Source: Bdellovibrio sp.
GTDB lineage: Bacteria; Bdellovibrionota; Bdellovibrionia; Bdellovibrionales; Bdellovibrionaceae
Assembly (NCBI GenBank): GCA_036676395.1
Contig: JAKFCY010000002.1
Span: 269,715-293,714 of the forward strand
Direction of reading: 5' to 3'
DNA length: 24,000 nucleotides
The notes beneath the pieces are model-generated. The model was not told where the DNA came from. It worked only from the letters and a program-made list of their open reading frames with translations, and searched no databases. Positions 3,860 to 24,000 of this stretch are shown piece after piece. A program made the position numbers and the translations under genes. How positions within the stretch are numbered: position 1 is the first letter of the stretch; every line of letters begins with the position of its first letter.

Positions 3860-5413
3860 GTGAAAAAGCTTGGAATTTATCTATTTTTAGCGATTTTATT
3901 GCAGAGTTTTACTGCCTCAGCAGATCTTTGGACTGTGACCCAACAGTGGTCGCCAGAGCTTGAAACTCAGTATCAAGAGTGGGTAAAAACACATGCAAAA
4001 GTCGACATGTTTTCGCGTGAATTTTTAGATACAAAAAAGACTGTTAAAAATCCTTATTACGGCATGACAACTGACTGTGCTGATACGGTTTATGCTTTGC
4101 GGGTGATTTTTTCTTTCGAAAATGGCCTTCCGTGGGCCATTAGAAATCCAGCAAATCCCAGAAAAGTTATCGCACAATCGATGACACGTTTTGATAGTTA
4201 CCCAGAGGGTGTTGCGCGCTTGCGTGCTTTTTTTAATATGCTATTTGATATCGTAAGCACAACAAGTTTACAGCACGACACGTATCCTGTTTCGATTAAT
4301 AAAATTCACCCAGGTGTGATTATCTTAACTGCGAAAATCAATCATCACTCATGGACAATTGCAGGCATCGACGCTAAAGGAAATCCCCGTTTAGTGTATA
4401 ATTCGGTTGTTGGTAAGGCGTCAGGTTCTAAATTACAACAGCGTTCAAGCTGGCCAAACCCGTTCTGGGTTTTCCAGCCAGATGAAAAGTTAACTGATCC
4501 AAATGATCCATTGTCGGCAAAATTTAAAGTTCCGGTCTATGTACCTGACAGTTACGCGGGATTTCGCTACTGGATCCCGGTTGATAAATTAACAACTGAC
4601 ATGCGCTTACTTCCTGAATACAGCAATGATCAGTACGAGCTAGATTTAAAATCGTGGAAACAAACTATTCAAACTAAATTAGCGACTAAAAAAGAATCTC
4701 TACAAGAAGTGGTAGAACGTCTACTAAAAGATGCTTGTGACGATGTTAAGCAGCGTATCACAGCAGTTGAAGAAGCTGATCACTATAGAAAATTATTAAA
4801 ACAAGCCCAAGAAAAAGAAGCTAGTTTAATTCTAGCCAAAGCTAGCATGCTGCCGATTACCGAAAATGATCAAGACTTATTAGATATTTTAAAAGAATAC
4901 AATGCTGATAAAAATACTCTGGCTAATCCGCAGTGTTTAACAGCAAAACAATACGACCAGCTTTCTACGCCAAGCCGTGATAAACGTTTATTTGATGCGG
5001 TGATGTTAGCGCGCGCTTACTTTGTACACGCAATGGAAGCCGGTGGCACAAAAGCATTCAGCGTTATTCGGTTAAAACAGTTTAAAAGAATTTTTGCTCA
5101 TCATGATAAACCTGCACGCGTTGAATCCGATTTAGCAACAGCTCCGATCGCCGCCGGTGAACTTTCAATTTGTCGTGTAAAAATCGGTAAAGAAACTTTA
5201 GACATGGCTGAAATTAAACGCCGCTTATTTAAAAGTTACCTTTCTTCGAATCCGAATGAAGATTTACTTGGCCGCTGGGGCGGTCGCGCAGATAAGCCAT
5301 CAGAACTAGCGGCTAGCTGTTCGACTTACGGCGAAGTTTATAAGGCGTATGATTTAGATCAGGCCGAAGTTGAAGCACAGCATGAAATTCAAACTTTTAA
5401 AGGTATGAACTAA
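3860..5413 (+). CDS. Secreted hypothetical protein (possible Cys/His hydrolase-like N-terminal domain plus helical C-terminal half)
   Basis: 517 aa from a GTG start with AAGGA 7 nt upstream and a signal peptide (MKKLGIYLFLAILLQSFTASA). TTDCADTVY (Cys73) and KINHHSWTIAGID (His162/163) resemble a papain-like/NlpC-P60-type Cys...His arrangement; this is a weak, by-eye call. Confidence 0.75.
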   Translation: MKKLGIYLFLAILLQSFTASADLWTVTQQWSPELETQYQEWVKTHAKVDMFSREFLDTKKTVKNPYYGMTTDCADTVYALRVIFSFENGLPWAIRNPANPRKVIAQSMTRFDSYPEGVARLRAFFNMLFDIVSTTSLQHDTYPVSINKIHPGVIILTAKINHHSWTIAGIDAKGNPRLVYNSVVGKASGSKLQQRSSWPNPFWVFQPDEKLTDPNDPLSAKFKVPVYVPDSYAGFRYWIPVDKLTTDMRLLPEYSNDQYELDLKSWKQTIQTKLATKKESLQEVVERLLKDACDDVKQRITAVEEADHYRKLLKQAQEKEASLILAKASMLPITENDQDLLDILKEYNADKNTLANPQCLTAKQYDQLSTPSRDKRLFDAVMLARAYFVHAMEAGGTKAFSVIRLKQFKRIFAHHDKPARVESDLATAPIAAGELSICRVKIGKETLDMAEIKRRLFKSYLSSNPNEDLLGRWGGRADKPSELAASCSTYGEVYKAYDLDQAEVEAQHEIQTFKGMN

Positions 5414-5473: not shown

Positions 5474-6577
5474 ATGAAGTATTTATTATTTTACACGATG
5501 GTTTTACTTTCGACTGCGGTCAAAGCTGAGATCGTCGAATTCAAATTACAAACTGAAAATCAAGCCTGCAAAGGTCTTTCACAAGTTGTCATCACTCAGG
5601 ATAAAGTGGTGTTGTATCAACTTGAAGTTCCAATGTATGGAACGGGCCAAATCCACTTACTCACTGGCAACTACCAAATCGATGTGATCAATAAAGCAGG
5701 TTGCACTTATCAGAACATCATTCAAATTTCTGATCTGCCAAATAAATTAATCGACGTAAAATTAGAAATGCAACCGCGTAAGCCTGCAATGACTTTAGAA
5801 GCTTCGGGCGGCATGGGTCAGGGCTTTAATCCGATGAGCTATAATTTATGGCCGTCACCCTGGTGGGGTGGTTGGGGTTATAACCAATTCAACACGCCAT
5901 TTTATTCTCCGTGTGGTTGGAGCATGTATGGCTGTAGTGGCAACTCTTACCCGCACAGTGGCAATATCGCTATGGGAAAACCAAATATTTATTTTAGTGG
6001 AAAAGATGAAGGTAAATTTAAATTAAAATTTACCGACGATAATTTTAACTTTTTAGCCACAGTGCCTTCATTTAAGGGAAAAGAAATTGGTGGCGAACTT
6101 CGTAAAGGCAGTATCTATTCAGAAAACACCTGGTATCCGTATTTATTTTACGATGCCCGTATTAGCGATGACCACTTACAAAATAACCAAGGTTTTTGCG
6201 GAACCCGCAAAGAAATCTTTCAATTTATGATGGAAGGTTTAAAAAAATATGAGTTTCCAAACGAAGCCAGAACCGATTTTGCCGAATACTGGTCAGTAAA
6301 AATTCCTGAAGCCCTACGCTACTGCGTTTTTCCACAAGCCAGTGCACAGTTAGATAAAGCGGCGCCACTAGAAATTACTTTTGATGATAAATCACAAGTG
6401 CGCACTGAACGATTATTCTATTTGGTGATTCCCCAAGATTACAAAGGTAAACGAATTCCTGCTAAGTCGAACAAATTCTCTGATAAACCAAAAAATCAAT
6501 GGAAGCACTATTCGCGCACCGTGATTCCAAAGGTCGCTTACATCTATGAATGGGGAGTCGGTTTTATTTTCGAATAG
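5474..6577 (+). CDS. Secreted hypothetical protein with Trp/Gly-rich segment
   Basis: 367 aa with a signal peptide (MKYLLFYTMVLLSTAVKA). It contains an unusual WPSPWWGGWGYNQFNTPFYSPCGWSMYGCSG stretch and no recognisable family. Confidence 0.7.
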   Translation: MKYLLFYTMVLLSTAVKAEIVEFKLQTENQACKGLSQVVITQDKVVLYQLEVPMYGTGQIHLLTGNYQIDVINKAGCTYQNIIQISDLPNKLIDVKLEMQPRKPAMTLEASGGMGQGFNPMSYNLWPSPWWGGWGYNQFNTPFYSPCGWSMYGCSGNSYPHSGNIAMGKPNIYFSGKDEGKFKLKFTDDNFNFLATVPSFKGKEIGGELRKGSIYSENTWYPYLFYDARISDDHLQNNQGFCGTRKEIFQFMMEGLKKYEFPNEARTDFAEYWSVKIPEALRYCVFPQASAQLDKAAPLEITFDDKSQVRTERLFYLVIPQDYKGKRIPAKSNKFSDKPKNQWKHYSRTVIPKVAYIYEWGVGFIFE

Positions 6578-9682: not shown

Positions 9683-10944
9683 ACGTTTACCTTTTTCGCA
9701 TGATCTGGAAGATCTTTAAAAATCATAAAAATAATCGTTAATGCAAATAACGTGAAAGCACCAGCCAATAAAAATGGAGATCCTTTGAACGCGCTTTGTA
9801 GCAAAAAGCCGCCAATCGGTGGCCCAATGACTCGGCCTAACGCCGATAAACTTTGCGTGGTTCCCATAGCTAAGCCTTGTTCTTCTGGCGGAACAAGAAG
9901 TGAAACACTTCCCATAAAGGCAGGGTTTGTTAAGCCGTGACCTAACGATAACAGCGTCATCGTAATACCCATCGCCGGAATACTTGGTGCAAATGCAATT
10001 CCTGCAAGCCCTAAACCTAATAAAAGTAACCCCAGGCAAAGAACTTTCTTTTCGCCCACTTTAGGTAAAAGACGGCGCACTAAAAAGCCTTGCGTGAAAA
10101 CAATGATTACGCCGATATAAGCAAATCCAAAACTGACTTCTTTGATGTTCCAGTTAAAAATTTCTTTCATGTACAGCACCAAAGAAGATTCCATTAAAGC
10201 CATCGCCAGTGTTGCTAGCGCAAAGCAGGTCATCAGGGGGCCAACAGTTTTGGTTTTAAAATAACGAGCTAAGTGTGATAGCTTTTTTTGTTTTTCAGCG
10301 CTGTTCTTAGCGCGTGTTTCTGGGCTGATAGATTCTTTTAAATTAAAGTAAGCAAAAATAAATGTAAATAAACACAATAAAGCTACGCCGAAAGAAGAAA
10401 AGCCTGCGATAAAGCCCATGTCTGTAGACATTGTCTCGGCCCAAATAGTTAAGCCGCCACCGATCGCTGGTCCGAATAAAAATCCTAAACCAAAAGCAAC
10501 GCCGATCACGGCCATACCTTTAGATCTATTTTCTGGAGTCGTCACATCTGAAACATAAGCCGATGCGGTTGAGATTGAAGCTCCGAAAAAACCGGTTAAA
10601 ATACGCGCAACAAAAAGCATTTCTATTGAACGCGAATAGGCCAGTACCAAATAAGAAATCATTTCGCCCAAAAGGCAGTACATTAAAATAGGTCTGCGGC
10701 CGTAGCGATCTGATAGTTTTCCCCAAAACGGAGCAAAGATAAATTGCATCAATGAGTAAGACGCCATTAGTAAGCCCGCGATCCAAGGGGTTGCGCCGTA
10801 GTGAACACTTAAAAGCGGAATCACTGGAATGATCATTCCAAAACCTAAAAGGTAAATGAAAACTGTGAAAAATATTACGATAAGTGGTTTTGAATTTGGG
10901 TTGCTCATATTAGCCGATCTAGACCTTTGTCTTCTGCTTTTCAT
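9679..10944 (-). CDS. MFS transporter (DHA1/TetA-like efflux family)
   Basis: About 12 hydrophobic segments, with MFS motif A GKLSDRYGRRP after TM2. The start is uncertain: ATG 10944 (track) or ATG 10908 (MSNPNSK...). Confidence 0.85.
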   Translation of the reverse strand: MKSRRQRSRSANMSNPNSKPLIVIFFTVFIYLLGFGMIIPVIPLLSVHYGATPWIAGLLMASYSLMQFIFAPFWGKLSDRYGRRPILMYCLLGEMISYLVLAYSRSIEMLFVARILTGFFGASISTASAYVSDVTTPENRSKGMAVIGVAFGLGFLFGPAIGGGLTIWAETMSTDMGFIAGFSSFGVALLCLFTFIFAYFNLKESISPETRAKNSAEKQKKLSHLARYFKTKTVGPLMTCFALATLAMALMESSLVLYMKEIFNWNIKEVSFGFAYIGVIIVFTQGFLVRRLLPKVGEKKVLCLGLLLLGLGLAGIAFAPSIPAMGITMTLLSLGHGLTNPAFMGSVSLLVPPEEQGLAMGTTQSLSALGRVIGPPIGGFLLQSAFKGSPFLLAGAFTLFALTIIFMIFKDLPDHAKKVNV

Positions 10945-10972
10945 ATATAAACTCGGTTACACTGGTGTGGCT

Positions 10973-12175
10973 ATGAAAAAAACATCAAATACACTGCGTT
11001 CTAAGATTAATTTTGTCGTCTTAACGATGACACTTTTTTCAACTGCTCAAAGCTGGGCGTTTTTTGATCCCTATCAGGTGTATCGCCAGCAAAGATTCGA
11101 TTTGGCCGTAGATGCCCAATTTTATAAAACCACAGCCAATTTTGATTCAGGTGGTGAAAAAATCGACTTACCTTTTGAAAATAGCTTTCAAATTATCGAT
11201 GTGAATCCCCAATTACGCTGGGGGATGTTTCGTGACCTTGGGGTTCGTTTAGGCACTAACATTGGTTCTTCTGAATCCGTTGACCCAATTAATACACGCA
11301 ATAATTCTACCGTAAATCGTGTCGATGTCGGTGCCGATTACCAATTATTAAATTATGAATCTTTCCAAACGATCGTCGATTTTGAATATTCTCATCCTAT
11401 GGAAAAAGTCGACGTCGCTACTGATTCTTCATTAAACAGTAACGGGGCTTCTGAAATTAAACCAACGCTGATCATGAGAATGGATTTAGGAAGTTTTTAT
11501 CCGTACGCTTATTTGGGCGCAAACATTCGCAATGAAGGCTTATCAACATTATTAACTTATGGTGTGGGCGGGGAATTTCGCTTTTCAGAATTAGGATTAG
11601 GCGCCGTTGTTGAAGGTTTTAGTTCTGTTAAAGATGATGAATTCACTAATTCAGCTTCACGCCGTGATTTAATCACGACACGAGTGAATGGTGGCAGTAA
11701 AAAGTTTTATTCAATTAATCCAAATGCATTAGCCGCAGAAGTATTTTTAAATTTTGCGATGACAGAATGGATTAAGTTTAAAGCTTACGGTGGAGCGGAT
11801 GTAACAGGGTCAAATACCTCACAAGGATTTTTTGTCGGTGGTGCGCTGACATTGACTCTTGATTATGGCAATGGCAGTGATGATCTTGAAGAACAACGTG
11901 TGATTCGTCGTTCGCAGCGCCCGGCAAAGAAAGTAAAAAAACCAGTCGATAACGGTTTCAAAGAAAGCACTGATGATGGCGTAGATCAAAATTATTTTAA
12001 ATCTGTAGATCCAAGTAATGATGATTACGTGCAACCCATTGAAGAAGAAGAACAGCAGGCAGTACCCCAAAATGGAACCAGTTCTAGTGTTAATCCAAGT
12101 ACACAAGGCGATTTGGATCAACTCGGTTACCAAATCAAATTAAAGAAACTTAAAAAGAAAAAGAAAAATCAGTAG
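10973..12175 (+). CDS. Putative outer-membrane beta-barrel-like protein with a long charged C-terminal tail
   Basis: Start moved to ATG 10973 (MKKTSNTLRSKINFVVLTMTLFSTAQSWA signal peptide); the 10856 start would overlap the divergent MFS gene. Amphipathic strand-like segments are visible (VDVGADYQL, IVDFEYSH, TLIMRMDL, AAEVFLNFA, GGALTLTLDY). A 102-aa acidic/basic tail ends in KLKKLKKKKKNQ. Confidence 0.65.
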   Translation: MKKTSNTLRSKINFVVLTMTLFSTAQSWAFFDPYQVYRQQRFDLAVDAQFYKTTANFDSGGEKIDLPFENSFQIIDVNPQLRWGMFRDLGVRLGTNIGSSESVDPINTRNNSTVNRVDVGADYQLLNYESFQTIVDFEYSHPMEKVDVATDSSLNSNGASEIKPTLIMRMDLGSFYPYAYLGANIRNEGLSTLLTYGVGGEFRFSELGLGAVVEGFSSVKDDEFTNSASRRDLITTRVNGGSKKFYSINPNALAAEVFLNFAMTEWIKFKAYGGADVTGSNTSQGFFVGGALTLTLDYGNGSDDLEEQRVIRRSQRPAKKVKKPVDNGFKESTDDGVDQNYFKSVDPSNDDYVQPIEEEEQQAVPQNGTSSSVNPSTQGDLDQLGYQIKLKKLKKKKKNQ

Positions 12176-14364: not shown

Positions 14365-15585
14365 CTACTGTACTTTTTGCCGTTCGCCAAATAAAACCGT
14401 GCCGATTCTGATCCATGTCGCACCTTCTTTGAGGGCGACTTGATAATCGTGGCTTGTGCCCATTGAAAGTTCTTTGACTTGTAAGCGATCCGCCAAGTTT
14501 TTTAATTTTTTAAAATGAACTTGATTGTCTGCAGCGACGTTTTGCAACGGCGGCATGGTCATTAATCCCACAATTCTAACATTTGAAAGTTTTGTCAGTT
14601 TTTCCCATGCGGCAATAACGCTGGCTTCGTCAAAACCCGCCTTAGTAGCCTCGTTCGCAAGGTTGACCTGAATAAAAATCTTTTGCACATGGTTGATTTC
14701 TGAAGCCTTTTTTGAAACTAATTCGGCTAACTCGAGCGAGTCTATGGCATGTAAATAGGCAAAATGATTTTTTAAAAATTTTATTTTGTTTTTTTGGATC
14801 GGGCCGATCAAGTGCCATTCTAAATTTAAATCTTTCAAGGCTTCGATTTTTTCTAACGCCTCTTGAATATAGTTTTCGCCGAAAGCGCGCTGACCTTGGC
14901 TGGCTAAATCGCGAATTTTTTCGATCGGCTGAAGTTTGCTGACCGCGAGCAAATTCTGACCAGAAGAAAGCTGAGCTTTGATTTGCGCCAAAGGTGATTT
15001 TTCAAAAGTCCAATTTTTACCAGCAAATAATTTTTCTAAAGCTGTCAAAGGCAAGCCCACAACGTTGTTGTAGTCACCCACAAATTTTTCCACAAATTTT
15101 CCGCCCAAACCTTGGATGGCGTAAGAGCCCGCTTTATCCATCGGTTCGCCGGTTTTGATGTAATCCCAGATGTCTTGATCAGTTAAATTTTTAAAATAAA
15201 CCTGCGATGTCTCAATATGAGAAATAATATGACCATTACTTTGGTCCAGAAGGATGATCGCGGTTTTTACTTCGTGCATTTTGCCTGAAAGTTTTTTCAA
15301 AGTATCAAACGCATCCTGTTCGTTTTCAGGTTTTCCGATCGCTAAATTTTCTAAACAAACCATCGTGTCTGAAGCCAAAATAATACCGCCTGGATTTTTG
15401 TCAGGACATTGGTCTAGGCAAGCCAACGCTTTTCTTTTTGCGATGTCGATTATTTGCTCGTCTAAGCTTAGGTTTTCATTCGGGATTTCCGATATAAAGA
15501 CTGGGAATGAGACAAAATAATATCCGGCTTTTTTTAAGATTTCAGCGCGGCGTGGAGATTGCGAAGCTAGGACAATTTTTTTCAT
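14365..15585 (-). CDS. Maf (nucleotide pyrophosphatase / septum-formation protein) fused to YggS/PROSC-family PLP-binding protein
   Basis: A single 406-aa ORF. The N-terminal ~190 aa carry Maf motifs (LASQSPRR, ILASDTMV, KAGSYAIQG). The C-terminal ~215 aa carry YggS motifs (LLAVSK with the PLP lysine, FGENYIQE, WHLIGPIQKNK, LSMGTSHDY, IRIGTVLFGER). Confidence 0.88.
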   Translation of the reverse strand: MKKIVLASQSPRRAEILKKAGYYFVSFPVFISEIPNENLSLDEQIIDIAKRKALACLDQCPDKNPGGIILASDTMVCLENLAIGKPENEQDAFDTLKKLSGKMHEVKTAIILLDQSNGHIISHIETSQVYFKNLTDQDIWDYIKTGEPMDKAGSYAIQGLGGKFVEKFVGDYNNVVGLPLTALEKLFAGKNWTFEKSPLAQIKAQLSSGQNLLAVSKLQPIEKIRDLASQGQRAFGENYIQEALEKIEALKDLNLEWHLIGPIQKNKIKFLKNHFAYLHAIDSLELAELVSKKASEINHVQKIFIQVNLANEATKAGFDEASVIAAWEKLTKLSNVRIVGLMTMPPLQNVAADNQVHFKKLKNLADRLQVKELSMGTSHDYQVALKEGATWIRIGTVLFGERQKVQ

Positions 15586-15615: not shown

Positions 15616-16521
15616 ATGGGTAGTGCTGAACTCATGTTATTTACCGGGCTCATCTTAGCGGGTGTGTCGGTTTATCTTTTCATGACGTCGATTCTGGCGG
15701 GTAAACCCGGCGAAGCTCAATTGCAATGGGCCAGCGGCACTGAACCAGTTAAATCTAAAAATGGAATCATCAATCTTTGTCGTCCGATGGTGCATCAGTT
15801 CACTCTGCAGCATGCGGCAAAATTTAAATCAGAACAGTATCGTAAAAAAATTCGCCATTTGATCAAAACCGGCGGCATGTCATCAGAGATGAACGAAGAT
15901 GAATTTATTGGTTACCAATTGTTTTTAGGAATCGCGTTTCCGATTTTTATTAACATCATGAATTTTTCTTTGGATCTTGGTTTTTCGCCATTGGTTTTAT
16001 GTATGCTTGGTGTGGTGGGCTGGTTCATGCCACAAATGCACTGTAAGGCGCAAAAAAATGCCCGCACAATGAGTGTACAGGCCGATATGCCGTTTTTTAT
16101 TGATCTATTAGCCTTGTCAGTCGAAGCCGGTCTTGATTTTTTCGGAGCCATTCAAAAAATCGTCGATAAAGTCGCTGATCCAAATTCAGTTTTGGCTGAT
16201 GAATTAAAAACCGTTTTGAAAGATATTAAAGTCGGTTCGTCAAAAACAGATGCATTAAAAGAAATGGCAGCCCGTTTAGATATGCCCGAAATCACCAGTT
16301 TCGTGGCGGTGTTAATCGATGCTGAAGCCACCGGTGCAAGTATCGCGCAAGTGTTAAAAGATCAATCAGTGCAAATGCGTTTAGAACGGTTTGTGCGCGC
16401 AGAAAAAGCCGGAGCACGCGCTTCGCAATTAATTTTATTACCATTAATGGGTTTTATTTTACCAGCGGTATTTATCATGGTGTTTGGCCCAGTGGTATTA
16501 GGATTTATTTACGGAAAATAG
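15616..16521 (+). CDS. Type II secretion system F-domain (TadB/TadC-type) inner-membrane platform protein
   Basis: 301 aa with an N-terminal TM. The central T2SSF-type helical domain reads MPFFIDLLALSVEAGLDFFGAIQKI ... ALKEMAARLDMPEITSFVAVLIDAEATGASIAQVLKDQSVQMRLERF. C-terminal TMs follow (LILLPLMGFILPAVFIMVFGPVVLGF). AGAGGA lies 5 nt upstream of the ATG. Confidence 0.85.
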   Translation: MGSAELMLFTGLILAGVSVYLFMTSILAGKPGEAQLQWASGTEPVKSKNGIINLCRPMVHQFTLQHAAKFKSEQYRKKIRHLIKTGGMSSEMNEDEFIGYQLFLGIAFPIFINIMNFSLDLGFSPLVLCMLGVVGWFMPQMHCKAQKNARTMSVQADMPFFIDLLALSVEAGLDFFGAIQKIVDKVADPNSVLADELKTVLKDIKVGSSKTDALKEMAARLDMPEITSFVAVLIDAEATGASIAQVLKDQSVQMRLERFVRAEKAGARASQLILLPLMGFILPAVFIMVFGPVVLGFIYGK

Positions 16522-16534
16522 GAAAATAAGAACT

Positions 16535-16891
16535 ATGGCAAAACTTTATAAAATACAACACGGCGATAAAGCTGAGCTTTTGATTGAAAATCTAGAGCTG
16601 GCCGAATCATTTTTTGCCCGTGGTAAAGGTTTGTTAGGCAGAAAATCTTTAGCGGTTAACAACGCGCTTTGGATCAAACCCTGCAACAACATTCATACCT
16701 GTTTTATGAATTTTGCTATTGATTGTATTTTCGTAAATAAAAAAATGGAAATTGAAAAAATCGTATCAGGTGTAAAGCCCTATAAGATTGTAGGTCCATA
16801 TTGGAAGTCGGCTTCAGTTTTTGAAACTGCAGCAGGATGTGCGCAAAAATGGAACCTTCAGGTAGGAGATCAGTTATATGTGGTCAGTTAG
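16535..16891 (+). CDS. DUF192 (COG1430) family protein
   Basis: 118 aa. The layout matches DUF192 by eye (FFARGKGLLGRKSL, ALWIKPCNNIHTCFMNFAIDCIFVNKKMEI). It starts 13 nt after the upstream stop and overlaps the next gene by 14 nt. Confidence 0.7.
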   Translation: MAKLYKIQHGDKAELLIENLELAESFFARGKGLLGRKSLAVNNALWIKPCNNIHTCFMNFAIDCIFVNKKMEIEKIVSGVKPYKIVGPYWKSASVFETAAGCAQKWNLQVGDQLYVVS

Positions 16892-18539
16892 AGTCTTATC
16901 CGGTCCACAAACCGGACAAATCTTTGATTTAAAAATGGGTAAAAATCTACTGGGTCGGGGAATGAACTGTGATTTCAAAATCACTTCGGGTGGTATTTCT
17001 AAAGATCACTGCGAGATTCATGTTTATAAAGATAAAGTGATCGTGGTTGATTTAAAATCAAGCAACGGAACCTTCGTCAATGGCGTAAAAATTCAAAATT
17101 CAATTATTAAACTGGGTGATAAAGTCAGCGTATTCGATGTGATTATGGATGTGATTCCGTCTCCGGATATTCGTCCAAAACCAGCCGCACCCCGTCCGGT
17201 CGCATTGCGTCCGCGGCCAGCAGCGCAACAACGCCAAATGCCTCCACAAATGTACAACCAGCAACCTCCGGCGTATCCAATGCAAGGCGGAGCGGCGATG
17301 CAAGCGCAAATGTATCAACAACCACTGAATGGAGTTCCACCACAGCAAAATAATTTTGGTGCGGCTATTGAAGTGCCAAAAACCTTTGGCGAGCGCATTG
17401 ATGATTATATGGAAAACGTGGTGATGCCGGTATTTTATAAAATGTCGGTGGTGTTTCCATTTAAACAAGTTTTATTGGGCATGATGATTTTATTTGTCGT
17501 GTTCGTGACGATAGCTTCGATGTTTCCTTTAACAACAATTTTGCGCGAATCTAATTTTAATGAAGCCGCTAAACGAGCAAAAAGTGTAGCGCGTGCTATG
17601 GCGCGTATTAATGAACAGGCCTTATTATCAGGACAAATTAATAACTTAAATGTGAGTGAAGCTTTAAAAGAAGATGGCATTAAAGAAGCTATCATTATTA
17701 TGCAATCAGATGGTTCGGTTGTTGCTCCGACTGAAAAAGTCGGTCGTGATATGTCGAAATCTTTTGTGATTCAAGCGCGCAAAGAACCGCGTGCGATGGC
17801 GGCTCCCGTTGATGATAATACCATCGGGGCAAGTCATCCGATCGCAGCTTATGATCCACTATCAGGTGAAACGACTGTTAAATACGTAGCGATTGTTTTT
17901 TATGATATCAGCTCATTAAATGTGGATGATGGCCGTGTGGTCAGTTTATTTATGCAGACGTTAGTCATCTCGGCGTTATTTGGTATTGGATTGTATTTAT
18001 TGTTTTCGCGTTTAATTGAATTTCCAATTCGTCAGCTGAACAAACAAATCGATACGGCCTTGCGCGAAAAATCTGATCGCACTGAAGTTGCCTTTGATTA
18101 CCCAGAATTACAAAAAGCTGTAGCCAATGTGAATCTGCTTTTAAATCGTATGTGGAATGGTTTAAATGATTCTGAAACCATTAAACCAAGTCAAAATCGT
18201 GATGTCGAATTTTCACAAATGGTGAATATGCTAACTCAGCCTGCTGCTGTCATTTCTGCAAATGGATCAATTACTTCGTGTAATCATCAATTTGCAACCT
18301 TAGTGCAAACTGTACCCGAAGCTCTGGTGGCGCAAAGTTATATGACAATTACTGATCAGGCGATGGTACAGAATTTAGAAAGTTTAATGAGCCGAGCGCG
18401 TGAATTAGTTTATGAAACGCATCGAGATAAAATTCCGTTTTCTCAATTTGAATGTGAAATATTTTTACAGGCATTTTTAGACAGTGCCGGCGCACCAGAA
18501 TACTTTTTTGTAAGTTTAACCAAGGTGAATGAGGAGTAA
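16878..18539 (+). CDS. FHA-domain membrane sensor-like protein (FHA / P,Q-rich linker / TM / Cache-like periplasmic domain / TM / HAMP-like / PAS-like)
   Basis: 553 aa. The N-terminal FHA domain has GR (LLGRG), SxxH (SKDH) and NG (SSNGTFVNG). A P/Q-rich region spans aa ~95-160. TM1 is LLGMMILFVVFVTIASMFPL and TM2 is VVSLFMQTLVISALFGIGLYLLF. Between them lies a ~135-aa segment with the pattern IIIMQSDGSVVAP...VKYVAIVFYD. After TM2 comes an amphipathic HAMP-like stretch, then a PAS-like end (LTQPAAVISANGSITSCNHQFATLV). No kinase, GGDEF or other output domain is present. Confidence 0.8.
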   Translation: MWSVRVLSGPQTGQIFDLKMGKNLLGRGMNCDFKITSGGISKDHCEIHVYKDKVIVVDLKSSNGTFVNGVKIQNSIIKLGDKVSVFDVIMDVIPSPDIRPKPAAPRPVALRPRPAAQQRQMPPQMYNQQPPAYPMQGGAAMQAQMYQQPLNGVPPQQNNFGAAIEVPKTFGERIDDYMENVVMPVFYKMSVVFPFKQVLLGMMILFVVFVTIASMFPLTTILRESNFNEAAKRAKSVARAMARINEQALLSGQINNLNVSEALKEDGIKEAIIIMQSDGSVVAPTEKVGRDMSKSFVIQARKEPRAMAAPVDDNTIGASHPIAAYDPLSGETTVKYVAIVFYDISSLNVDDGRVVSLFMQTLVISALFGIGLYLLFSRLIEFPIRQLNKQIDTALREKSDRTEVAFDYPELQKAVANVNLLLNRMWNGLNDSETIKPSQNRDVEFSQMVNMLTQPAAVISANGSITSCNHQFATLVQTVPEALVAQSYMTITDQAMVQNLESLMSRARELVYETHRDKIPFSQFECEIFLQAFLDSAGAPEYFFVSLTKVNEE

Positions 18540-18547
18540 AGCACTAG

Positions 18548-19783
18548 ATGTCGACGGCTGAAAAGCTTAACCCCGCAGTTCAAATTAAATTGAAAGTGCT
18601 GAAAGGACCGCACGAAGGGCAGTCTTTTCACCTTGCAAAGAGCTCGTTTACTTTAGGACGTGGTCCTGAGAACGAGGTCGTGTTAATTAATGATCCGCAG
18701 ATCAGTCGTCAGCATGCGCGTTTACAAGTGGTTGGCCAAGATATCGAAATTATTAATCTCAGCAAAAAAAATAAAGTGATGGTGGGATCAGAAGAAATTC
18801 AGAAATGGAAACTGATCAATGATTCTACTTTTGTTATAGGTGATACTGAACTTCAAATTGCTTTTGAAATTGAAAAAATCACGCCCGTAGCGCCGTTGCC
18901 GCAATTAGTGCCTATAAGCAATTTACCAGCGTTGCCAACTCCGCCAGTTGAAAGTGGAGCACCTTCTTCTCCAGCTCCGGGCGGTGCAAGTGGGCCGCAG
19001 GCAAACGCACCAAAAATAAAACAACAACCAGCTCAGCGAAAGCCAATGTCTGCGCCAGCAATGCGCCAACAAGCGCCGGCGCAAAGACAACAGCAAATGC
19101 AACAACGCGGTCCGATGGTTGCGGGTCGGCCGATGCAACAACAAATGCAGCGACCGATGCAGCAGCAACAAAATGCACAGGTAAATTTAGGGTATGCAAA
19201 ACCTCAACAAGCCAGTGGTGGATTTTTTGCAAATCCAAAAGTTCGATTTTATTTAATCGTCGGCATAGCGGTCTTTAGTCTAGTTTATTGGCTGAATATG
19301 GAAGAGCCCAAAAAAGCTCAATCTACAGAGATTAAGTCGACTTTAAAATATGAAGATGAATATCTTCTTAAACAAAATTCGGTCACTGAAAAAGAGCTGG
19401 ACCTAAAACGTAAAAACCAATTGGAGCAAAAGAACTCGCCGACCAATTTACGTATCCAAGAGAACTTTCAAAAAGGGATGCGTGATTTTCAGTTAGGCAA
19501 TTACACGCGCTCCCTAGACTTTTTTCAGGTTGTTCTGAACTTAGATTCAAGCCACGTCATGGCCCGTAGGCATTTATATTTAGCAAAAATCCGCTTCGAT
19601 GAAATCGTAAAAGCGAAATTAGCACTTGGAGAAAGTTATTATCAGAAGCATAATTTTAAAATGTGCCTGGCTAATTACCAGCAAGTTTTGACTATGCTTC
19701 AGGGTAAAAACAACGACCAAAGTTACCAAACAGCCCAAAGCATGTCAGAAAAGTGTCAACTGGCAGCTGAGGGAATTCGTTAA
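18548..19783 (+). CDS. FHA-domain membrane protein with TPR-like C-terminal region
   Basis: 411 aa. The N-terminal FHA domain has LGRG and ISRQH, with the NG position degenerate. A ~115-aa P/Q/A-rich linker (MQQQMQRPMQQQQ) and a single TM (FYLIVGIAVFSLVYWL) follow. The C-terminus has TPR-like helical repeats (QKGMRDFQLGNYTRSLDFFQVVLNLD; GESYYQKHNFKMCLANYQQVL). Confidence 0.8.
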   Translation: MSTAEKLNPAVQIKLKVLKGPHEGQSFHLAKSSFTLGRGPENEVVLINDPQISRQHARLQVVGQDIEIINLSKKNKVMVGSEEIQKWKLINDSTFVIGDTELQIAFEIEKITPVAPLPQLVPISNLPALPTPPVESGAPSSPAPGGASGPQANAPKIKQQPAQRKPMSAPAMRQQAPAQRQQQMQQRGPMVAGRPMQQQMQRPMQQQQNAQVNLGYAKPQQASGGFFANPKVRFYLIVGIAVFSLVYWLNMEEPKKAQSTEIKSTLKYEDEYLLKQNSVTEKELDLKRKNQLEQKNSPTNLRIQENFQKGMRDFQLGNYTRSLDFFQVVLNLDSSHVMARRHLYLAKIRFDEIVKAKLALGESYYQKHNFKMCLANYQQVLTMLQGKNNDQSYQTAQSMSEKCQLAAEGIR

Positions 19784-19785
19784 AT

Positions 19786-21867
19786 ATGTCGAGACTGAAA
19801 GTTATATTAAGGGGAGCACAGATCAGTGACTTAAACCTTAGCCCCGAGCGTGAATACGTCGGTGGCCGTAAGGAAAGTTGTGATATCCGTTTGCAACCTG
19901 AAAAAGGAATCTCGCGCGAACATTTCAAATTAAAATTTGAAGAAGGCCGCTGGATATTAACGTCACTCTCACGTTTTGGCGAAATCTTTTCTTTAGGGCA
20001 AAGAGTTGAATCAACACCGCTCGAGCATGGCCAGGTTTTTCAAATTCCACCGTATGAATTTACGTTAAGCGATATACCAGATTCACAAAGTGATAGCGTT
20101 AATGCCAATGAGATGCCAGAGGCCGGCGAAAATGAACGAACGGTTATTGGCGTAGCCCAGCAAGTACCTTATATCAAAATGATGTCGTCAGACGGAGCCG
20201 TTCGCGAAATGCTTCGTTTAGAAGTGGGCGATGTTTGGGCTGCGGGGCGCGATCCTTCGTGCCAAATTATTATTCCTGATCAGCGTGTAAGTCGTCGGCA
20301 ATTTGAAGTTAGAAAAATTAATGGTATTTACACGATCATTGATTTAACGAGCGTGAACGGAACTTTCTTAAATGGTTCACCTATTTCAAGCACTGATCCG
20401 CAACCCTTAAAATCTGGCGATGCGATCACCGTACTTGATAACACCATGTACTTCGAACTTCATGATCCAAACTTTCAATACCGTATGGAGCGTATTGAAG
20501 TTCCTCCATTGCAAATGGCAGGTGCTGCCGGTATTGATGATCTTGAAGAAATTGGTCTTGATGAAATTCCACTAGAAGAAGAACAATACGATCCGAATCA
20601 GGATATGAATTACCCGCAAGAAATTGATCAAGGTTATTACCAAGATCAGTTAAATCCGGATGGCAGCCCGTTTACCGGAATGCCACAAGAACAAATGCAG
20701 GGTGATTACTACAATATGCAACAGGGTGAACAAGCTCCTGAGCAACAAGGCCCACCGCCGACACCCATTGTTCAGGCCTGGAACAGATTTAAAAATAACA
20801 AACCCGTTTTCTTTTCAGTGATCGCTTTGTTTTTGGTCGGCATGTATTTTTTAAGTGATATGATGAATTCGCCAGCGCCGCAAAAGAGCGGTCAGCAACA
20901 GGCTTTTAATCCGGATGATCCATTGTCTCGCTTAAAACCAGAAGAGCGCGAAAATGTTAATCTTTGGTATAACAATGCTGAAAAAGCCCTTCGTCAACAG
21001 GCGTTCACTATAGCCAAAGAAAATTTAGATAATATTCATAAACTAATGCCATTGGGATATAAAGATTCAAAACTTTATGAAGCTGAAGCTTTAAATGGTG
21101 AACAAACTTTATTAACTCAGCAAGAAACAGAACGTCGTGAAAAAGAACAGGCTGAATTACAGACCCTGATCAAGGCCACATTAGAAAAATGTGAAAAGGC
21201 CATTGTACCAGAAACGACTCCGGAAGGTTTGCAAGATTGCTTAGCGCCAGTGACAATCAATGATCCGACAAATGCCGAGGCCGAAAGAATGTTAATGCAG
21301 GTTAGAAAAACAATTTCTGACCGCTTAGCTAAAGAAGAAGCAGAACGTGTGGCAAAAAATCAGCGAGAAGAATTGAAAGAAATTTTTGAACGCGCAGAAA
21401 AAGTTCATGAAACTGGTTTTCCGAAAAAAGCCATTAAAGCTTATCGCGAAGTTATTGATAGTGATCTTCCGGATCCAGATGGATTAAAAGACACGGCGGC
21501 ACTGCGAATTAAATTTATACAAAAAAAGTTAGAAGAACGTAATGCTAATAATATTTCAAGTGCTGAGCTTTATTTAAAAGACGGTAAATTTAAAGAAGGC
21601 ATCATGGCTTTACGAGCGGCTTTGCAATTTGATCCCGATAATCAAACGATCAAAGATAAAATCGAGCGTTACTCAAATGATTTGCGCAATCAGGTGAAGG
21701 TGATGTACCAAGAGTCGATCATCGATGAAAATTTTGGTTATGTAGATGGTTCTGATACCCGCCCGGGTGCAAAAGATAAATGGAAAAAAATTATCGATAT
21801 CGATTTAGAGGACGGCGATTATTACCGTAAGGCCTTCATTAAGTTAAAACGTTATGGAGTATTATAA
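19786..21867 (+). CDS. Tandem-FHA membrane protein with long coiled-coil/TPR-like extracytoplasmic region
   Basis: 693 aa. FHA-a (aa ~1-95: GGRKE, ISREH, no NG) and FHA-b (aa ~130-226: AAGRD, VSRRQ, TSVNGTFLNG) are followed by an acidic Q/Y/D/E-rich linker and a single TM (VFFSVIALFLVGMYFL). A ~335-aa helical, K/E-rich region with TPR-like repeats completes the protein. The ATG lies 2 nt after the upstream stop. Confidence 0.8.
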   Translation: MSRLKVILRGAQISDLNLSPEREYVGGRKESCDIRLQPEKGISREHFKLKFEEGRWILTSLSRFGEIFSLGQRVESTPLEHGQVFQIPPYEFTLSDIPDSQSDSVNANEMPEAGENERTVIGVAQQVPYIKMMSSDGAVREMLRLEVGDVWAAGRDPSCQIIIPDQRVSRRQFEVRKINGIYTIIDLTSVNGTFLNGSPISSTDPQPLKSGDAITVLDNTMYFELHDPNFQYRMERIEVPPLQMAGAAGIDDLEEIGLDEIPLEEEQYDPNQDMNYPQEIDQGYYQDQLNPDGSPFTGMPQEQMQGDYYNMQQGEQAPEQQGPPPTPIVQAWNRFKNNKPVFFSVIALFLVGMYFLSDMMNSPAPQKSGQQQAFNPDDPLSRLKPEERENVNLWYNNAEKALRQQAFTIAKENLDNIHKLMPLGYKDSKLYEAEALNGEQTLLTQQETERREKEQAELQTLIKATLEKCEKAIVPETTPEGLQDCLAPVTINDPTNAEAERMLMQVRKTISDRLAKEEAERVAKNQREELKEIFERAEKVHETGFPKKAIKAYREVIDSDLPDPDGLKDTAALRIKFIQKKLEERNANNISSAELYLKDGKFKEGIMALRAALQFDPDNQTIKDKIERYSNDLRNQVKVMYQESIIDENFGYVDGSDTRPGAKDKWKKIIDIDLEDGDYYRKAFIKLKRYGVL

Positions 21868-21869
21868 TC

Positions 21870-22448
21870 GTGAAATCAAAAATTAACTCACATAACGGCG
21901 ACCAAAAGTTTCCTCAAACCAGATTACACAGTTTGTTAAATGATAATTTACTGGTGTGCATTCGTTTGTGGAGTGGACCTGAGGCTGAACAAAAAGCCGT
22001 GGATGAAATTTCAAGATATCTTTCTGCGGCAGATGCAGATTTAGAAGTGACGACGCCCTTCGACTATATTGAAAGCCTATCTTCATTATCAAATAAAGTG
22101 CGGGTAGCTTTGTTGTTGGCTAACGAAGCCATTTATTTAGATAATAAAGAAAGATATACCCAAGGCTATGAAATCGCGATTTGTTACAAGCATAACAAAG
22201 AAATCAGTATTGGATCAGTGGGCCGTTTTGCATTTACTGCAGAAAAAAAAGATAAACACTTTACGATATTTGAATCAGGCGCATTTTTAGATGATTTGGT
22301 TTTATTACCTACAGATTTATTGGGCATCGAACGCGAAGTAGATATTAAATGCACTTCGGTTTCTACGCGTGATTTAGAAGCCATTCAAATTAGCTCAACG
22401 TTTGACGAAAACACTTATTGGCAAGCGCACCTTAATCAATTTGACTGA
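21870..22448 (+). CDS. Hypothetical 192-aa protein (last gene of the FHA operon; possibly a degenerate PP2C-like fold)
   Basis: The GTG start lies 2 nt after the upstream stop, with GGAG about 10 nt upstream. It has no signal peptide or TM. Segments LLVCIRLWSGPEAEQKAVDEI and GYEIAICYKHNKEISIGSVGRFAF loosely resemble PP2C motifs but lack the metal-binding Asp residues. Confidence 0.6.
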   Translation: MKSKINSHNGDQKFPQTRLHSLLNDNLLVCIRLWSGPEAEQKAVDEISRYLSAADADLEVTTPFDYIESLSSLSNKVRVALLLANEAIYLDNKERYTQGYEIAICYKHNKEISIGSVGRFAFTAEKKDKHFTIFESGAFLDDLVLLPTDLLGIEREVDIKCTSVSTRDLEAIQISSTFDENTYWQAHLNQFD

Positions 22449-22473: not shown

Positions 22474-24000
22474 TTATAGTACAAAAGCCGGATCGATAAA
22501 AATCAATGGGTGATACCAAACTTTATTGGGCTGATATAAACCCCACATGTTTTCTAAAGCCAGATTCCAAATCGCGATTTTAATTTCTTCAAAATATTTT
22601 TTACGACTTAACTCATAAGTTAGCTTTGCTTTTTCAGAGCTTAAATCAAATAGACTTGCGTGTTTAAACTTTAAATAATCGACGAATAAACTATCATGAC
22701 AAGATTTTAGCTGTGAAAGGCTTGTCGGTGGTTTGCTGATCAGATTTAAACACCCCGAATAGGCCATATCCAGTTTTGTCAGATCTAATTTATCGATTTG
22801 TTTATTTTTAAGCTGTTGATTTAACCAGTACAGATAAAGCGGATGGTTTTCAGAAATTTTTAACGAGAAAAATTCAGCAGCAGGTAAAGTGTTTTTTAAA
22901 TAATCCCGGGCGATCACCGAGCCATTATCTTCAATGGGAGTAATGCTTGTCATAAATAAACGACGAATGCTTGGAATATCCTGCTCCGCATTTTTTTTGT
23001 TATTAAGGTTAACAACTTCAAAGCGATCGGTCGCTAAATTAAAAATTTCGGTTTCATCTTTGCGATCTATAACTAATAATGTCGGGCTGATAATCGCAAA
23101 GTTCAATTGTAGGGGTGATTTGATCCATGTATTAGAGGCTTCAACCAACAGCTGGCGAGTGCCGGCGATGCTGTCAGAGGCTTCACTGTAAAATTGACTG
23201 AGGTTCAACACTGGAAATCCATCAAGTGTTGAGGGTTCGTCTGACGCGAAGAAATTCTTAAGAGTATACCCTATGTCGGCCAGACTTATAGGAATGTCGT
23301 TCTTCCACGAAATGCCTTCATCGCCTTGCATGCGTGGAGGTTTGATTAAAAGTGACACAAGCGTATTTTCAGAGTGTAAATTTAAAAAAGCAGTTTCATT
23401 TAGGCGGTTATAATTATTGCTGCCGCGCAAACCGACAACGTAAACGTAAGTTTTATCCCAAATGCCGCGATCTTTTAGTTCAGTGATAAAGTTAAAGAGT
23501 TTTTCGTCTAATCTTTCAAGGTTAGTCGATGTTGTATCAAGCTCATTTAAAGCCTCGATTTCAGAATTGGTAATCACCGCAAAAAAGGGAGTCGAGTCTT
23601 CTTGTTGCCAATCTAAAAAGCTTTCTGAAGTGGTTTTGAAATCTTTGATAATTTGGTTTGAATATTGAGCGGCTGCTGAATCATCGAAGGTATCAAAGTA
23701 TTTCGATAAGCCAGTCTTTTTAAGTACATGCGGGTTGCCAGCGAAAAACCCAGTGCGATAACCTTTGTGGTATGCAGCCTCTTGTGCGGTTTTAACTTGC
23801 GAGTTTAATTGATCAAAACTGCGATGCACGCCGTGAACCAGCGGATACTGGCCAGTTAATATTGATCCCATCGCGGCAGCAGGTTGTAAGGATGTGGTGT
23901 AAGCATGAGTAAAGCGCATGAACTCTTTACAAATCAGAGCGATACCCGAATTGTCGTCGTTTTTTTCTTCAGAACAGTTCAGACGTTCATTGTCGAGTTG
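22474..24000 (-). CDS. Alkaline-phosphatase-superfamily (sulfatase/NPP-like) protein, 5-prime partial (continues beyond window end)
   Basis: The frame stays open upstream of the track ATG (23919) to base 24000 (…LNCSEEKNDDNSGIALICKEFMRF…). FTHAYTTSLQPAAAMGSILTGQYPLVHGV and KGYRTGFFAG match the sulfatase/NPP core layout. A canonical C/S-x-P-x-R is not readable. Confidence 0.7.
   Translation of the reverse strand, partial: QLDNERLNCSEEKNDDNSGIALICKEFMRFTHAYTTSLQPAAAMGSILTGQYPLVHGVHRSFDQLNSQVKTAQEAAYHKGYRTGFFAGNPHVLKKTGLSKYFDTFDDSAAAQYSNQIIKDFKTTSESFLDWQQEDSTPFFAVITNSEIEALNELDTTSTNLERLDEKLFNFITELKDRGIWDKTYVYVVGLRGSNNYNRLNETAFLNLHSENTLVSLLIKPPRMQGDEGISWKNDIPISLADIGYTLKNFFASDEPSTLDGFPVLNLSQFYSEASDSIAGTRQLLVEASNTWIKSPLQLNFAIISPTLLVIDRKDETEIFNLATDRFEVVNLNNKKNAEQDIPSIRRLFMTSITPIEDNGSVIARDYLKNTLPAAEFFSLKISENHPLYLYWLNQQLKNKQIDKLDLTKLDMAYSGCLNLISKPPTSLSQLKSCHDSLFVDYLKFKHASLFDLSSEKAKLTYELSRKKYFEEIKIAIWNLALENMWGLYQPNKVWYHPLIFIDPAFVL

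Follow-up and report, generated by a model that had tools for sequence, protein, structure and literature searches.

A predicted attack-phase tadC operon joins a Tad platform protein to FHA proteins and a putative PP2C-derived pseudophosphatase in an uncultured relative of Bdellovibrio qaytius

Introduction

Bdellovibrio depends on Tad pili for holding its prey, for remodelling it and for invading it. A recent preprint names the link between the Tad machine and its neighbouring signalling proteins as an open question of the field (Tesseur 2026 preprint). The locus described here raises that question in a compact form: what is the gene of a Tad-type platform protein doing at the head of an operon that otherwise encodes a DUF192 protein, three membrane-anchored FHA proteins and a small protein that matches no sequence family? 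The operon lies in a stretch of 24,000 nucleotides (nt) from Bdellovibrio sp. (NCBI GenBank assembly GCA_036676395.1, contig JAKFCY010000002.1, positions 269,715 to 293,714 of the forward strand), the whole of which is called the window below. A first-pass annotation, made from the letters without database searches, had presented it as an orphan, to be read either as half of a split Tad/Kil-like machine or as a new FHA-based envelope signalling complex. The comparisons reported here identify the operon as the ortholog of Bd0470-Bd0475 of Bdellovibrio bacteriovorus, the 'tadC locus', which is already known and is not a new system. We consider it highly probable that the locus is best explained as an attack-phase tadC operon of a dispersed Tad machine, to which phospho-signalling accessory proteins have been added.

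Results

The platform protein is the ortholog of a studied TadC

A match of the open reading frame (ORF) starting at 15616 to the T2SSF family had been set beforehand as a test of its identity, and the ORF scores 62 bits against PF00482 (cut-off 25.2, E=6.9e-17; Pfam). Its product is a polytopic membrane protein of about 300 residues with a single T2SSF domain, orthologous to an experimentally studied TadC, and it stands outside any tad cluster with neighbouring tadB and tadA genes. More than 2,000 TadC relatives are present in the protein collection. The best 120 are 77-98% identical to the window protein, and nearly all the named ones among these 120 are labelled Bdellovibrio, Pseudobdellovibrio or Bdellovibrionaceae; the JGI label of the TadC relatives is 'tight adherence protein C'. 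The syntenic ortholog in five B. bacteriovorus strains is 69-71% identical, and from the HD100 coordinates and flanking genes it can be identified as Bd0470. The latter is the reciprocal-best hit of both Myxococcus xanthus KilH and Caulobacter CpaH (CC_2940) (Seef 2021). In B. bacteriovorus, TadC is a separately encoded, essential and pole-localised platform subunit of a Tad machine that is complete in HD100 yet dispersed, the separation of tadC being characteristic of Bdellovibrio (Tesseur 2026 preprint). Attempts to delete tadC were unsuccessful, foci of TadC-mCherry are seen together with RomR at the invasive pole, and cells depleted of Tad attach transiently, with no remodelling or invasion of the prey (Tesseur 2026 preprint). 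Mutants in tadC (Bd0470) do not attach to prey (Duncan 2019). For TadC, the proposal of a split Tad/Kil-like machine was therefore right, given its orthology to Bd0470 and the reciprocal-best match of the latter to KilH, and it had already been published. The picture of an unrecognised orphan has to be abandoned, since for this operon the literature already offers a mapped promoter, expression profiles, phenotypes of mutants and an interacting protein.

Long TadC homologues of 400-530 residues were considered as possible FHA-TadC fusions of the Rosetta-stone type and were rejected, as their N-terminal extensions carry no Pfam domain. TadC proteins of 395-508 residues are encoded at many distant loci (L129, L130, L132-L134, L136, L137, L139, L141-L143, L145, L146, L149, L150, L152, L154, L155, L157, L159, L161, L162, L164, L166). 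In representatives of these the N-terminus is extended by a region that starts like a signal peptide and matches no Pfam domain; it appears to be a periplasmic addition to the platform protein.

The published ortholog in B. bacteriovorus

The order in HD100 is maf (Bd0469), Bd0470 'TadC', Bd0471-Bd0475, Bd0476 and tolQ Bd0477 (Karunker 2013, PMC3627812), and Bd0472 overlaps Bd0471 by 14 nt (PMC3627812). Transcript mapping could have revealed independent units; it assigns one attack-phase transcription start site, 439801, to the operon '470-471-472-473-474-475', with the promoter flagged as FliA (PMC3627812). All six genes are attack-phase specific, with 462-963 reads per kilobase per million mapped reads in the attack phase against 0-21 in the growth phase (PMC3627812). 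Bd0470-Bd0475 are also stated to be one operon in an interaction study (Front Bioinform 2025, PMC12034629), in which a bacterial two-hybrid assay showed that Bd0474, with its two FHA domains, transmembrane (TM) helix and TPR region, interacts with Bd0075, a GYF-TM-TPR protein essential for predation. In the same study a contact between Bd0473 and Bd0475 is predicted by AlphaFold-Multimer with an interface predicted TM-score of 0.604 (PMC12034629). A Bd0474 transposon mutant attaches to prey and neither kills nor rounds it (Duncan 2019).

The window operon has the same six genes in the same order, the same 14-nt overlap of genes 2 and 3, a FliA-type promoter in maf and the same downstream neighbours; FHA protein 3 is identical to Bd0474 in architecture, including both FHA domains, the TM helix and the TPR region. 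The differences concern the accessory proteins, whose identities to their B. bacteriovorus counterparts are low (34-39% for FHA protein 2, 38-40% for FHA protein 3 and 29-31% for gene 6), the length of the gene 6 product, which is 192 residues compared with 228 in Bd0475, and maf, which in the window lineage is fused to yggS and abuts tadC, unlike in B. bacteriovorus. The experimental data cited here come from B. bacteriovorus. The genome paper of B. qaytius makes no mention of Tad genes.

Gene order is conserved and the module is detached from other tad genes

The window DNA shares 94.5% identity with the metagenome-assembled genome Bdellovibrio sp. LC001 and 85% with B. qaytius, an epibiotic predator, and we assign it to the tadC locus of an uncultured B. 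qaytius relative in the Pseudobdellovibrio clade. The coordinates of the compact same-strand operon, which spans 15616-22448 (Table 1), were reproduced exactly from the first annotation, together with its spacings of +13, -14, +8, +2 and +2 nt in order. A genome scan of one genome per GTDB species by alignment with the TadC query yielded 80 loci, all of them in Bdellovibrionaceae or Pseudobdellovibrionaceae. Loss of the gene order in related genomes would have spoken against a functional unit; analysis by tblastn and ORF calling found the six genes in the same order in 61/61 loci that reach at least 6.9 kb past the tadC start, among them those of five B. bacteriovorus strains. Every intergenic distance in the related loci is 26 nt or less, and the 14-nt overlap between the DUF192 and FHA1 genes is invariant (73/73 loci). 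The flanks are syntenic too, with maf/yggS, proC and divIVA on one side and a sulfatase-like gene followed by ExbB/TolQ on the other. To judge from these comparisons, the six-gene arrangement is far beyond chance. Protein conservation declines along the operon (Table 1).

Table 1. Features of the tadC operon in the window. The last column gives the range of protein identity to the window protein in related loci (tblastn); aa, amino acids.
Feature	Coordinates	Strand	Description	Identity to window
Predicted FliA (sigma-28)-type attack-phase promoter	15468..15494	+	TTAGG 15468-15472, 16-nt spacer, CCGATA 15489-15494	
tadC (kilH/cpaH class)	15616..16521	+	301 aa; single T2SSF domain, residues 161-290; four hydrophobic segments (hydropathy); inner-membrane platform protein	64-98%
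DUF192 protein	16535..16891	+	118 aa; next gene overlapped by 14 nt	39-98%
FHA protein 1 (gene 3)	16878..18539	+	553 aa	36-98%
FHA protein 2 (gene 4)	18548..19783	+	411 aa	26-95%
FHA protein 3 (gene 5)	19786..21867	+	693 aa	31-98%
Gene 6, putative PP2C-derived pseudophosphatase	21870..22448	+	192 aa, cytoplasmic; ortholog position of Bd0475	25-97%

The other parts of a Tad machine are not encoded nearby. The secretion ATPase, secretin, prepilin peptidase and Hanks kinase families have no match among the other window ORFs of at least 60 residues, and genes for T2SSE, a second T2SSF protein or a secretin were found neither in the window nor within 10 kb in the relatives inspected. The absence from the window of a TadA/GspE-class ATPase, a second platform protein, a secretin, a prepilin peptidase and a Hanks-type kinase, as first annotated, was thus upheld by profile searches. 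The operon might have been the tail of an ordinary Tad locus lying just outside the window. No tad genes occur in the 10 kb on either side in B. qaytius or in a relative with an 85%-identical TadC, which excludes an adjacent complete canonical Tad locus for close relatives.

Distant lineages were reached by a metagenome scan seeded with TadC proteins about 40% identical to that of the window. Of the distant loci that extend far enough downstream, most show TadC-DUF192-FHA1-FHA2-FHA3 in this order; in most of the distant metagenomic loci the DUF192 gene directly follows tadC. The operon of the distant lineage L151 is detached from tad genes and flanked by genes for GH3, ABC permeases, MreB and a response regulator. 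We interpret the module of tadC, DUF192, three FHA genes and a PP2C-type gene as an ancient, invariant unit that is held apart from the other tad genes. Some distant loci depart from this layout. A small FHA-only ORF (about 100-250 residues) stands between the DUF192 and FHA1 genes in L121-L125, giving five FHA domains in the operon. L096 (9061-10903), L088 and L110 have a tadC without downstream DUF192 or FHA genes; in L096 a PilZ-domain gene lies immediately 5' of tadC among unrelated flanking genes, and it may represent an alternative cyclic di-GMP input to the same platform protein.

A FliA-type promoter is embedded in maf

The putative promoter motif lies 127 nt upstream of the tadC start codon, inside the divergent maf-yggS reading frame. 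Compared with TTAAG-N16-CCGATA, the attack-phase consensus published for Bdellovibrio, the window element keeps 10/11 bases with the exact spacing, as expected of a FliA promoter, and a transcription start can be predicted near 15504. The start codons of maf-yggS (15585, minus strand) and tadC (15616) are separated by 30 nt, and in 79/79 related loci TTCCGATA occurs at a distance of 126-137 nt upstream of tadC. Third codon positions of maf are conserved at 0.85-1.0 across the motif compared with about 0.35-0.6 around it, which indicates a constraint beyond protein coding. The HD100 promoter mapped by Karunker is the direct ortholog of the window element. The main TAD operon is likewise FliA-dependent, according to published work, and this shared control explains how the parts of a split Tad machine can be expressed together. 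The embedding of the FliA-type promoter in the upstream maf gene is a new detail, and its activity in the window organism is a prediction. A generic sigma-70 and terminator scan of the window gave hits at background level only.

The gene that harbours the motif (14365-15585, minus strand) fuses Maf and the pyridoxal-phosphate-binding protein YggS (Ala_racemase_N) in one ORF of 406 residues, and the tadC promoter is read from the other strand of its first 40 codons or so. Matches by tblastn extend over no more than about half of the fusion in many relatives, and maf of HD100 (Bd0469) is a separate short gene.

The FHA proteins combine putative phosphothreonine-reading domains with sensor-like or TPR domains

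Pfam FHA matches in genes 3, 4 and 5 score 54.7, 42.1 and 104.5 bits, respectively, against a cut-off of 20.7; the last comes from two stretches, so that the count of four FHA domains first made from the sequence was confirmed. Yop-YscD_cpl, a model of an FHA variant, is above its cut-off in all three proteins (Pfam), and P/Q-rich or acidic linkers separate the FHA domains from the membrane.

FHA protein 1 consists, in order, of an N-terminal FHA domain, a P/Q-rich linker, TM1 (198-216), a periplasmic alpha/beta domain (about 260-343), TM2 (about 354-380), HAMP-like helices with an invariant Pro383 and a C-terminal PAS domain (about 440-549). By hydropathy the two TM helices enclose about 137 periplasmic residues, and the Pfam match to PAS is weak. 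Residues 195-516 align with positions 7-331 of the NCBIfam WalK model NF033092 (E=1.5e-5, far below the family cut-off). The AlphaFold2 (AF2) model has a predicted local distance difference test (pLDDT) of 70-90 for residues 170-553 and shows a canonical PAS fold. Searched with Foldseek, it matches best a WalK model (9a5d_A, E=1.8e-13), and PAS proteins come next. The protein thus contains the complete series of a WalK-type sensor module, namely TM helix, extracytoplasmic domain, TM helix, HAMP and PAS. Neither HisKA nor HATPase_c is matched in FHA protein 1, which stops at residue 553 after the PAS domain and is left with the N-terminal FHA domain as its only plausible output. From its modelled fold, we describe it as a sensor-kinase-like receptor without a kinase, which is a new detail of the locus. 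An antisense ORF at 17100-17468 was dismissed, being opposite the low-complexity P/Q-linker region of this protein.

FHA protein 2, in the ortholog position of Bd0473, has an FHA domain, a long P/Q-rich linker, a single TM helix (232-252) and a periplasmic TPR region, with about 160 residues outside; Pfam reports Yop-YscD_cpl/FHA and a weak TPR match. FHA protein 3, in the ortholog position of Bd0474, has FHA domains at 8-96 and 153-215, an acidic linker, a TM helix at 341-359 and a periplasmic TPR/helical domain of about 330 residues. In alignments of 67-74 sequences, those of the window included alongside its orthologs, the phosphothreonine (pThr)-pocket residues (Gly-Arg, Ser-x-x-His and Asn) are at least 95% conserved in FHA1, in FHA2 and in the second domain of FHA3; in FHA1 this applies to R27, S41, H44 and N63. 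A conserved Gln replaces the His in the second FHA3 domain, and the first FHA3 domain is without the pocket Asn. The conservation of the pockets suggests that phosphopeptides are genuinely read and speaks against a role like that of YscD, which would be structural only.

The FHA proteins resemble several known families without belonging to them. The SctD/YscD model TIGR02500 gives 15-26 bits against a cut-off of 86 and is matched over its first 57-100 or so positions only. The type VI secretion TagH/Fha model TIGR03354, whose match is confined to the FHA part, gives 70.8 bits (cut-off 120.25), GltG (NF033760) 24-40 bits (cut-off 650) and FhaB 38-45 bits (cut-off 125). These likenesses are architectural analogies and not memberships, since only the FHA part is matched, at scores far under the cut-offs. 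The analogy to the YscD ring of type III secretion, which had been drawn from the order of FHA, TM and periplasmic domains, therefore fails at the level of membership, the periplasmic parts being TPR or PAS-like sensor domains.

The second gene encodes a member of DUF192 (PF02643, 63.3 bits against a cut-off of 27; Pfam) in which hydropathy analysis found no signal peptide and no TM or hydrophobic segment. A literature search on DUF192 was uninformative on its function, as was a PDB sequence search with the protein.

Gene 6 has a PP2C fold and has lost its catalytic motifs

The product of gene 6 has no Pfam or NCBIfam match, and PP2C, PP2C_2 and SpoIIE of Pfam do not recognise it. Its family is small, with 64 proteins found, and the closest named source is B. 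qaytius. An AF2 model built on 39 sequences has a pLDDT of 90.2 and a predicted TM-score of 0.88. Searched with Foldseek against the PDB, its top matches are the bacterial PP2Cs tPphA, PstP, PppA (6jkv) and Stp1 (E 4e-9 to 3e-7, probability 1.0, query TM-score 0.59-0.70), as expected of a PPM fold. Sequence and profile searches against PDB sequences found nothing, and hhalign found nothing between the gene-6 family and Mycobacterium tuberculosis PstP, for which a query 100% identical to 2cm1_A was used. Because these methods were null, the PP2C link rests on the fold and on distant positional orthologs.

These distant orthologs are informative. An ORF of about 245 residues follows FHA3 in 25/28 distant loci with room for it; 7/10 of those scanned pass Pfam PP2C_2 (25.5-36 bits against a cut-off of 24), and DGxGG is present in 22/25, most of which also have NED/QED, [ST]DG and DN. 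None of 63 Bdellovibrionaceae-type gene-6 orthologs has DGxGG. In a joint alignment with PstP the window protein has PQT, IRLWSG and SST at the first three PP2C motifs, its C-terminus is truncated before the DN motif, and there is no invariant Asp in the family alignment of 39 sequences; the metal-binding Asp motifs are thus missing. On the strength of the model and of the distant orthologs we regard gene 6 as encoding a PP2C-derived pseudophosphatase that has lost the catalytic Asp motifs in the Bdellovibrionaceae and Pseudobdellovibrionaceae loci examined, and the ancestral operon apparently carried an active PP2C. The earlier statement that the window has no PP2C phosphatase is correct for sequence profiles and wrong for fold and ancestry. 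The label 'small unknown' for gene 6 can be replaced, in view of the fold and the Pfam-positive PP2C_2 proteins in the same position of distant operons. The word phosphatase is never used in the interaction paper PMC12034629, so that the PP2C identity of gene 6 appears to be unreported within the searchable papers.

The PP2C-like proteins of the operon share an insertion that PstP does not have. In the family of the window protein it contains the invariant E-V-T-T-P-F at gene-6 residues 59-64, which reads E-[VA]-T-L-P-F in the distant PP2Cs with motifs. That this loop is a docking site for FHA domains is a speculation.

Neighbouring genes and other content of the window

The operon is flanked by housekeeping genes, namely those for the Maf-YggS fusion, ProC, DivIVA, an MFS transporter, valyl-tRNA synthetase and a sulfatase-like protein; a 2-oxoglutarate oxygenase and a rhodanese are further housekeeping ORFs. 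The remaining sizeable ORFs are Pfam-negative and mostly bear signal peptides. Neither the Rfam scan nor the tRNA scan gave a match in the window. The sulfatase-like gene is convergent (22474-23919, minus strand) and ends 25 nt past the operon; a terminator scan found no terminator-like hairpin between the two. In the relatives L003 and L006 it is followed by ExbB/ExbD (TolQ/TolR-like) genes.

At the far end of the window, on the plus strand, 1287-1949 and 2043-2705 encode tandem paralogues of 220 residues each, 77% identical, with signal-peptide-like N-termini and no Pfam family. Both carry M-G-C-N-G-Q-M-H-R-G-P-T, in which C-x5-R recalls the active-site loop of Cys-based protein phosphatases. 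The plus-strand ORFs at 2759-3535, 3860-5413 and 5474-6577 (258, 517 and 367 residues) have hydrophobic, signal-peptide-like N-termini and no Pfam match; their products may be members of the secreted arsenal of the predator. An ORF of 439 residues at 10856-12175 (plus strand) has no Pfam family, and an ORF of about 400 residues occupies the same syntenic position in L003.

Discussion

A proposed model of the operon at the prey-facing pole

We propose that the locus works as an attack-phase tadC operon with accessory phospho-signalling proteins in the following manner. The FliA-type promoter in maf would fire in the free-swimming attack phase and give one six-gene mRNA, the tight spacing and overlaps of which would couple translation. 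Once in the inner membrane, TadC would combine with TadB, the secretin, the pilins and the TadZ-TadA ATPase, all encoded elsewhere, and together they would make up the platform of a pilus machine of the Tad/Kil type at the pole that faces the prey. The five co-transcribed proteins would form an accessory signalling or scaffold set, stoichiometric with TadC, comprising a WalK-like sensor with FHA output, two bitopic FHA-TM-TPR proteins, a cytoplasmic DUF192 protein and the pseudophosphatase. Their periplasmic TPR and sensor domains may read envelope or prey-contact cues, partly via TPR partners of the Bd0075 type, while the FHA domains on the cytoplasmic side, tethered by long and flexible linkers, would bind pThr sites on or near the platform or motor and thereby license a step after initial attachment. 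The PP2C relic would act as a non-catalytic adaptor, and the seemingly active phosphatase in the same slot of distant lineages would reset the signal. The gating of the Tad platform by FHA-pThr binding, the adaptor role of the pseudophosphatase and the role of the FHA proteins as scaffold or regulator are the parts of this proposal that we infer. A coupling between the FHA proteins and the Tad machine is suggested indirectly by the linkage in deep lineages, the conserved pockets, the PP2C ancestry and the FHA genes beside kilH, and also by the phenotype of the Bd0474 mutant, which resembles Tad depletion.

Several points weigh against this proposal. The pLDDT of FHA protein 1 is below 50 for residues 1-168 (window 16878-17160); the same region has a robust Pfam FHA match and a near-invariant sequence nonetheless, and the poor model may be an artefact of the long disordered linker. 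A Hanks kinase was found neither in the window nor in the 10 kb on either side inspected in relatives, no FHA ligand, phosphosite or kinase is known for the operon, and no contact between TadC and an FHA protein is known. The Bd0470 mutant does not attach to prey, whereas the Bd0474 mutant does, and polar effects of the upstream insertion are not excluded (Duncan 2019). DUF192 is without known function, and any role for it in the module would be conjectural. The loss of PP2C catalysis could mean that phospho-control has decayed in Bdellovibrionaceae and Pseudobdellovibrionaceae. Finally, the evidence for the partner genes tadA, tadB, rcpA and flp comes from B. bacteriovorus, and 24 kb of the organism's own genome have been read.

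A bolder form of the proposal, which we hold only tentatively and think less probable than not, would make the operon a self-contained, kinase-less 'reader' on the Tad platform, in which the sensor with FHA output, the FHA-TM-TPR pair as a bridge to partners in the periplasm or outer envelope, and the former PP2C as phospho-adaptor time the switch from holding the prey to invasion and remodelling. The E-V-T-T-P-F loop might then serve for FHA docking.

Alternative explanations

It can also be imagined that the FHA proteins are purely structural and form, independently of phosphorylation, ring or alignment subunits of the inner membrane round the Tad platform, in the manner of SctD, YscD or PrgH. 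The Yop-YscD_cpl matches in all three proteins would fit such a role, as would the lack of a kinase nearby (in the window and the inspected flanks of relatives), the dead phosphatase of the Bdellovibrionaceae and Pseudobdellovibrionaceae operons and the listing of MXAN_4649, beside KilH, with a weak PrgH-type hit (Seef 2021). We nevertheless judge it improbable, since pThr pockets are preserved in three of the four FHA domains, the SctD model is matched far below its cut-off and in its FHA part only, and in the periplasm there are TPR regions or a PAS-like sensor instead of motifs for building a ring; FHA protein 1, with its HAMP-like helices and PAS domain, has the architecture of a sensor. 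The apparently active PP2C of distant operons moreover implies a real phospho-turnover.

A gliding-motility or polarity complex, comparable to the GltG/GltJ focal-adhesion platform and merely co-expressed with tadC in the attack phase, would account for the FHA-TM-TPR architecture, which is that of GltG, and for the match of the N-terminal 240 residues of FHA protein 2 to the GltG model (E=1.9e-10). The GYF-TM-TPR architecture of Bd0075 presumably resembles that of GltJ. Bd0075 is the partner of Bd0474 (PMC12034629), and the aglS mutant falls in the same class of predation defects as tadC (Duncan 2019). The GltG score of 40 bits is, however, remote from the cut-off of 650, no gliding genes are found in the window or near the operon in the relatives inspected, and the overlapping or abutting linkage to tadC is kept from Bdellovibrio to lineages whose TadC is about 40% identical. 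In M. xanthus, too, FHA genes abut kilH, and the Bd0474 mutant, which attaches without rounding its prey, behaves as expected of a Tad defect, so that we rate this explanation as very improbable. Still less credence can be given to a general Ser/Thr-phosphorylation module of the cell envelope or of division, of the FhaA/FhaB/PstP type of Actinobacteria, that stands beside tadC by chance. It would find some comfort in the matches of the FHA domains to the FhaB/FipA model, in the union of FHA and PP2C-type genes in one operon and in the neighbouring DivIVA and YggS, whose genes we take to be frequent at the end of division and cell-wall clusters. The FhaB scores remain well under their cut-off, however, divIVA and yggS lie on the other strand and do not flank the operon of the distant lineage L151, the HD100 genes are specific to the attack phase, in which the cell neither grows nor divides, and the mutants are predation-specific.

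Comparison with known systems

The preferred reading of the locus, as a tadC operon with signalling accessories, can be set against systems that share some of its parts. The predation-dedicated Kil cluster 2 of M. xanthus (Seef 2021), compared here by its published description, is similar in that KilH is the ortholog of Bd0470 and is adjoined by the FHA protein MXAN_4649 and the FHA+TPR protein MXAN_4648, which bears out the statement in the first-pass annotation that Kil clusters carry FHA proteins. It differs in that KilH shares one large cluster with KilG and KilB, no DUF192 protein or PP2C is listed there, and the Kil ATPase itself carries an FHA domain (Seef 2021). With the canonical Tad/Cpa systems (Aggregatibacter tad, Caulobacter cpa) the window operon shares the TadC/CpaH-class platform protein with a single T2SSF domain. 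Canonical Tad loci hold tadA, tadB and tadC together and contain no FHA, DUF192 or PP2C genes, whereas tadC of the window is detached and has been joined into a signalling operon. The control of type VI secretion in Pseudomonas aeruginosa by PpkA, PppA and Fha1 offers another parallel, in which proteins of the FHA and PP2C types likewise serve a single nanomachine of the envelope; the structural matches of gene 6 include PppA (6jkv), and the second domain of FHA protein 3 (residues 154-228) gives the best match to the TagH/Fha model, below its cut-off. The window operon, however, has no kinase, its phosphatase homologue is catalytically dead, and its FHA proteins are membrane-anchored with periplasmic domains. 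As to the WalK-type sensor histidine kinases, FHA protein 1 follows the same order of parts from the TM helix to the cytoplasmic PAS domain and has an N-terminal FHA domain instead of the DHp and catalytic domains.

Significance for predation

The analysis sharpens the parts list of a published locus by the deep conservation of its module, a putative pseudophosphatase, a predicted kinase-less sensor and a predicted promoter embedded in maf. If the operon were indeed a kinase-less reader of phosphorylation on the Tad platform, it would be the first defined signalling input to the Tad machine in a predator, and it would provide an example of a phosphatase turned into a pseudo-enzyme inside a conserved operon.

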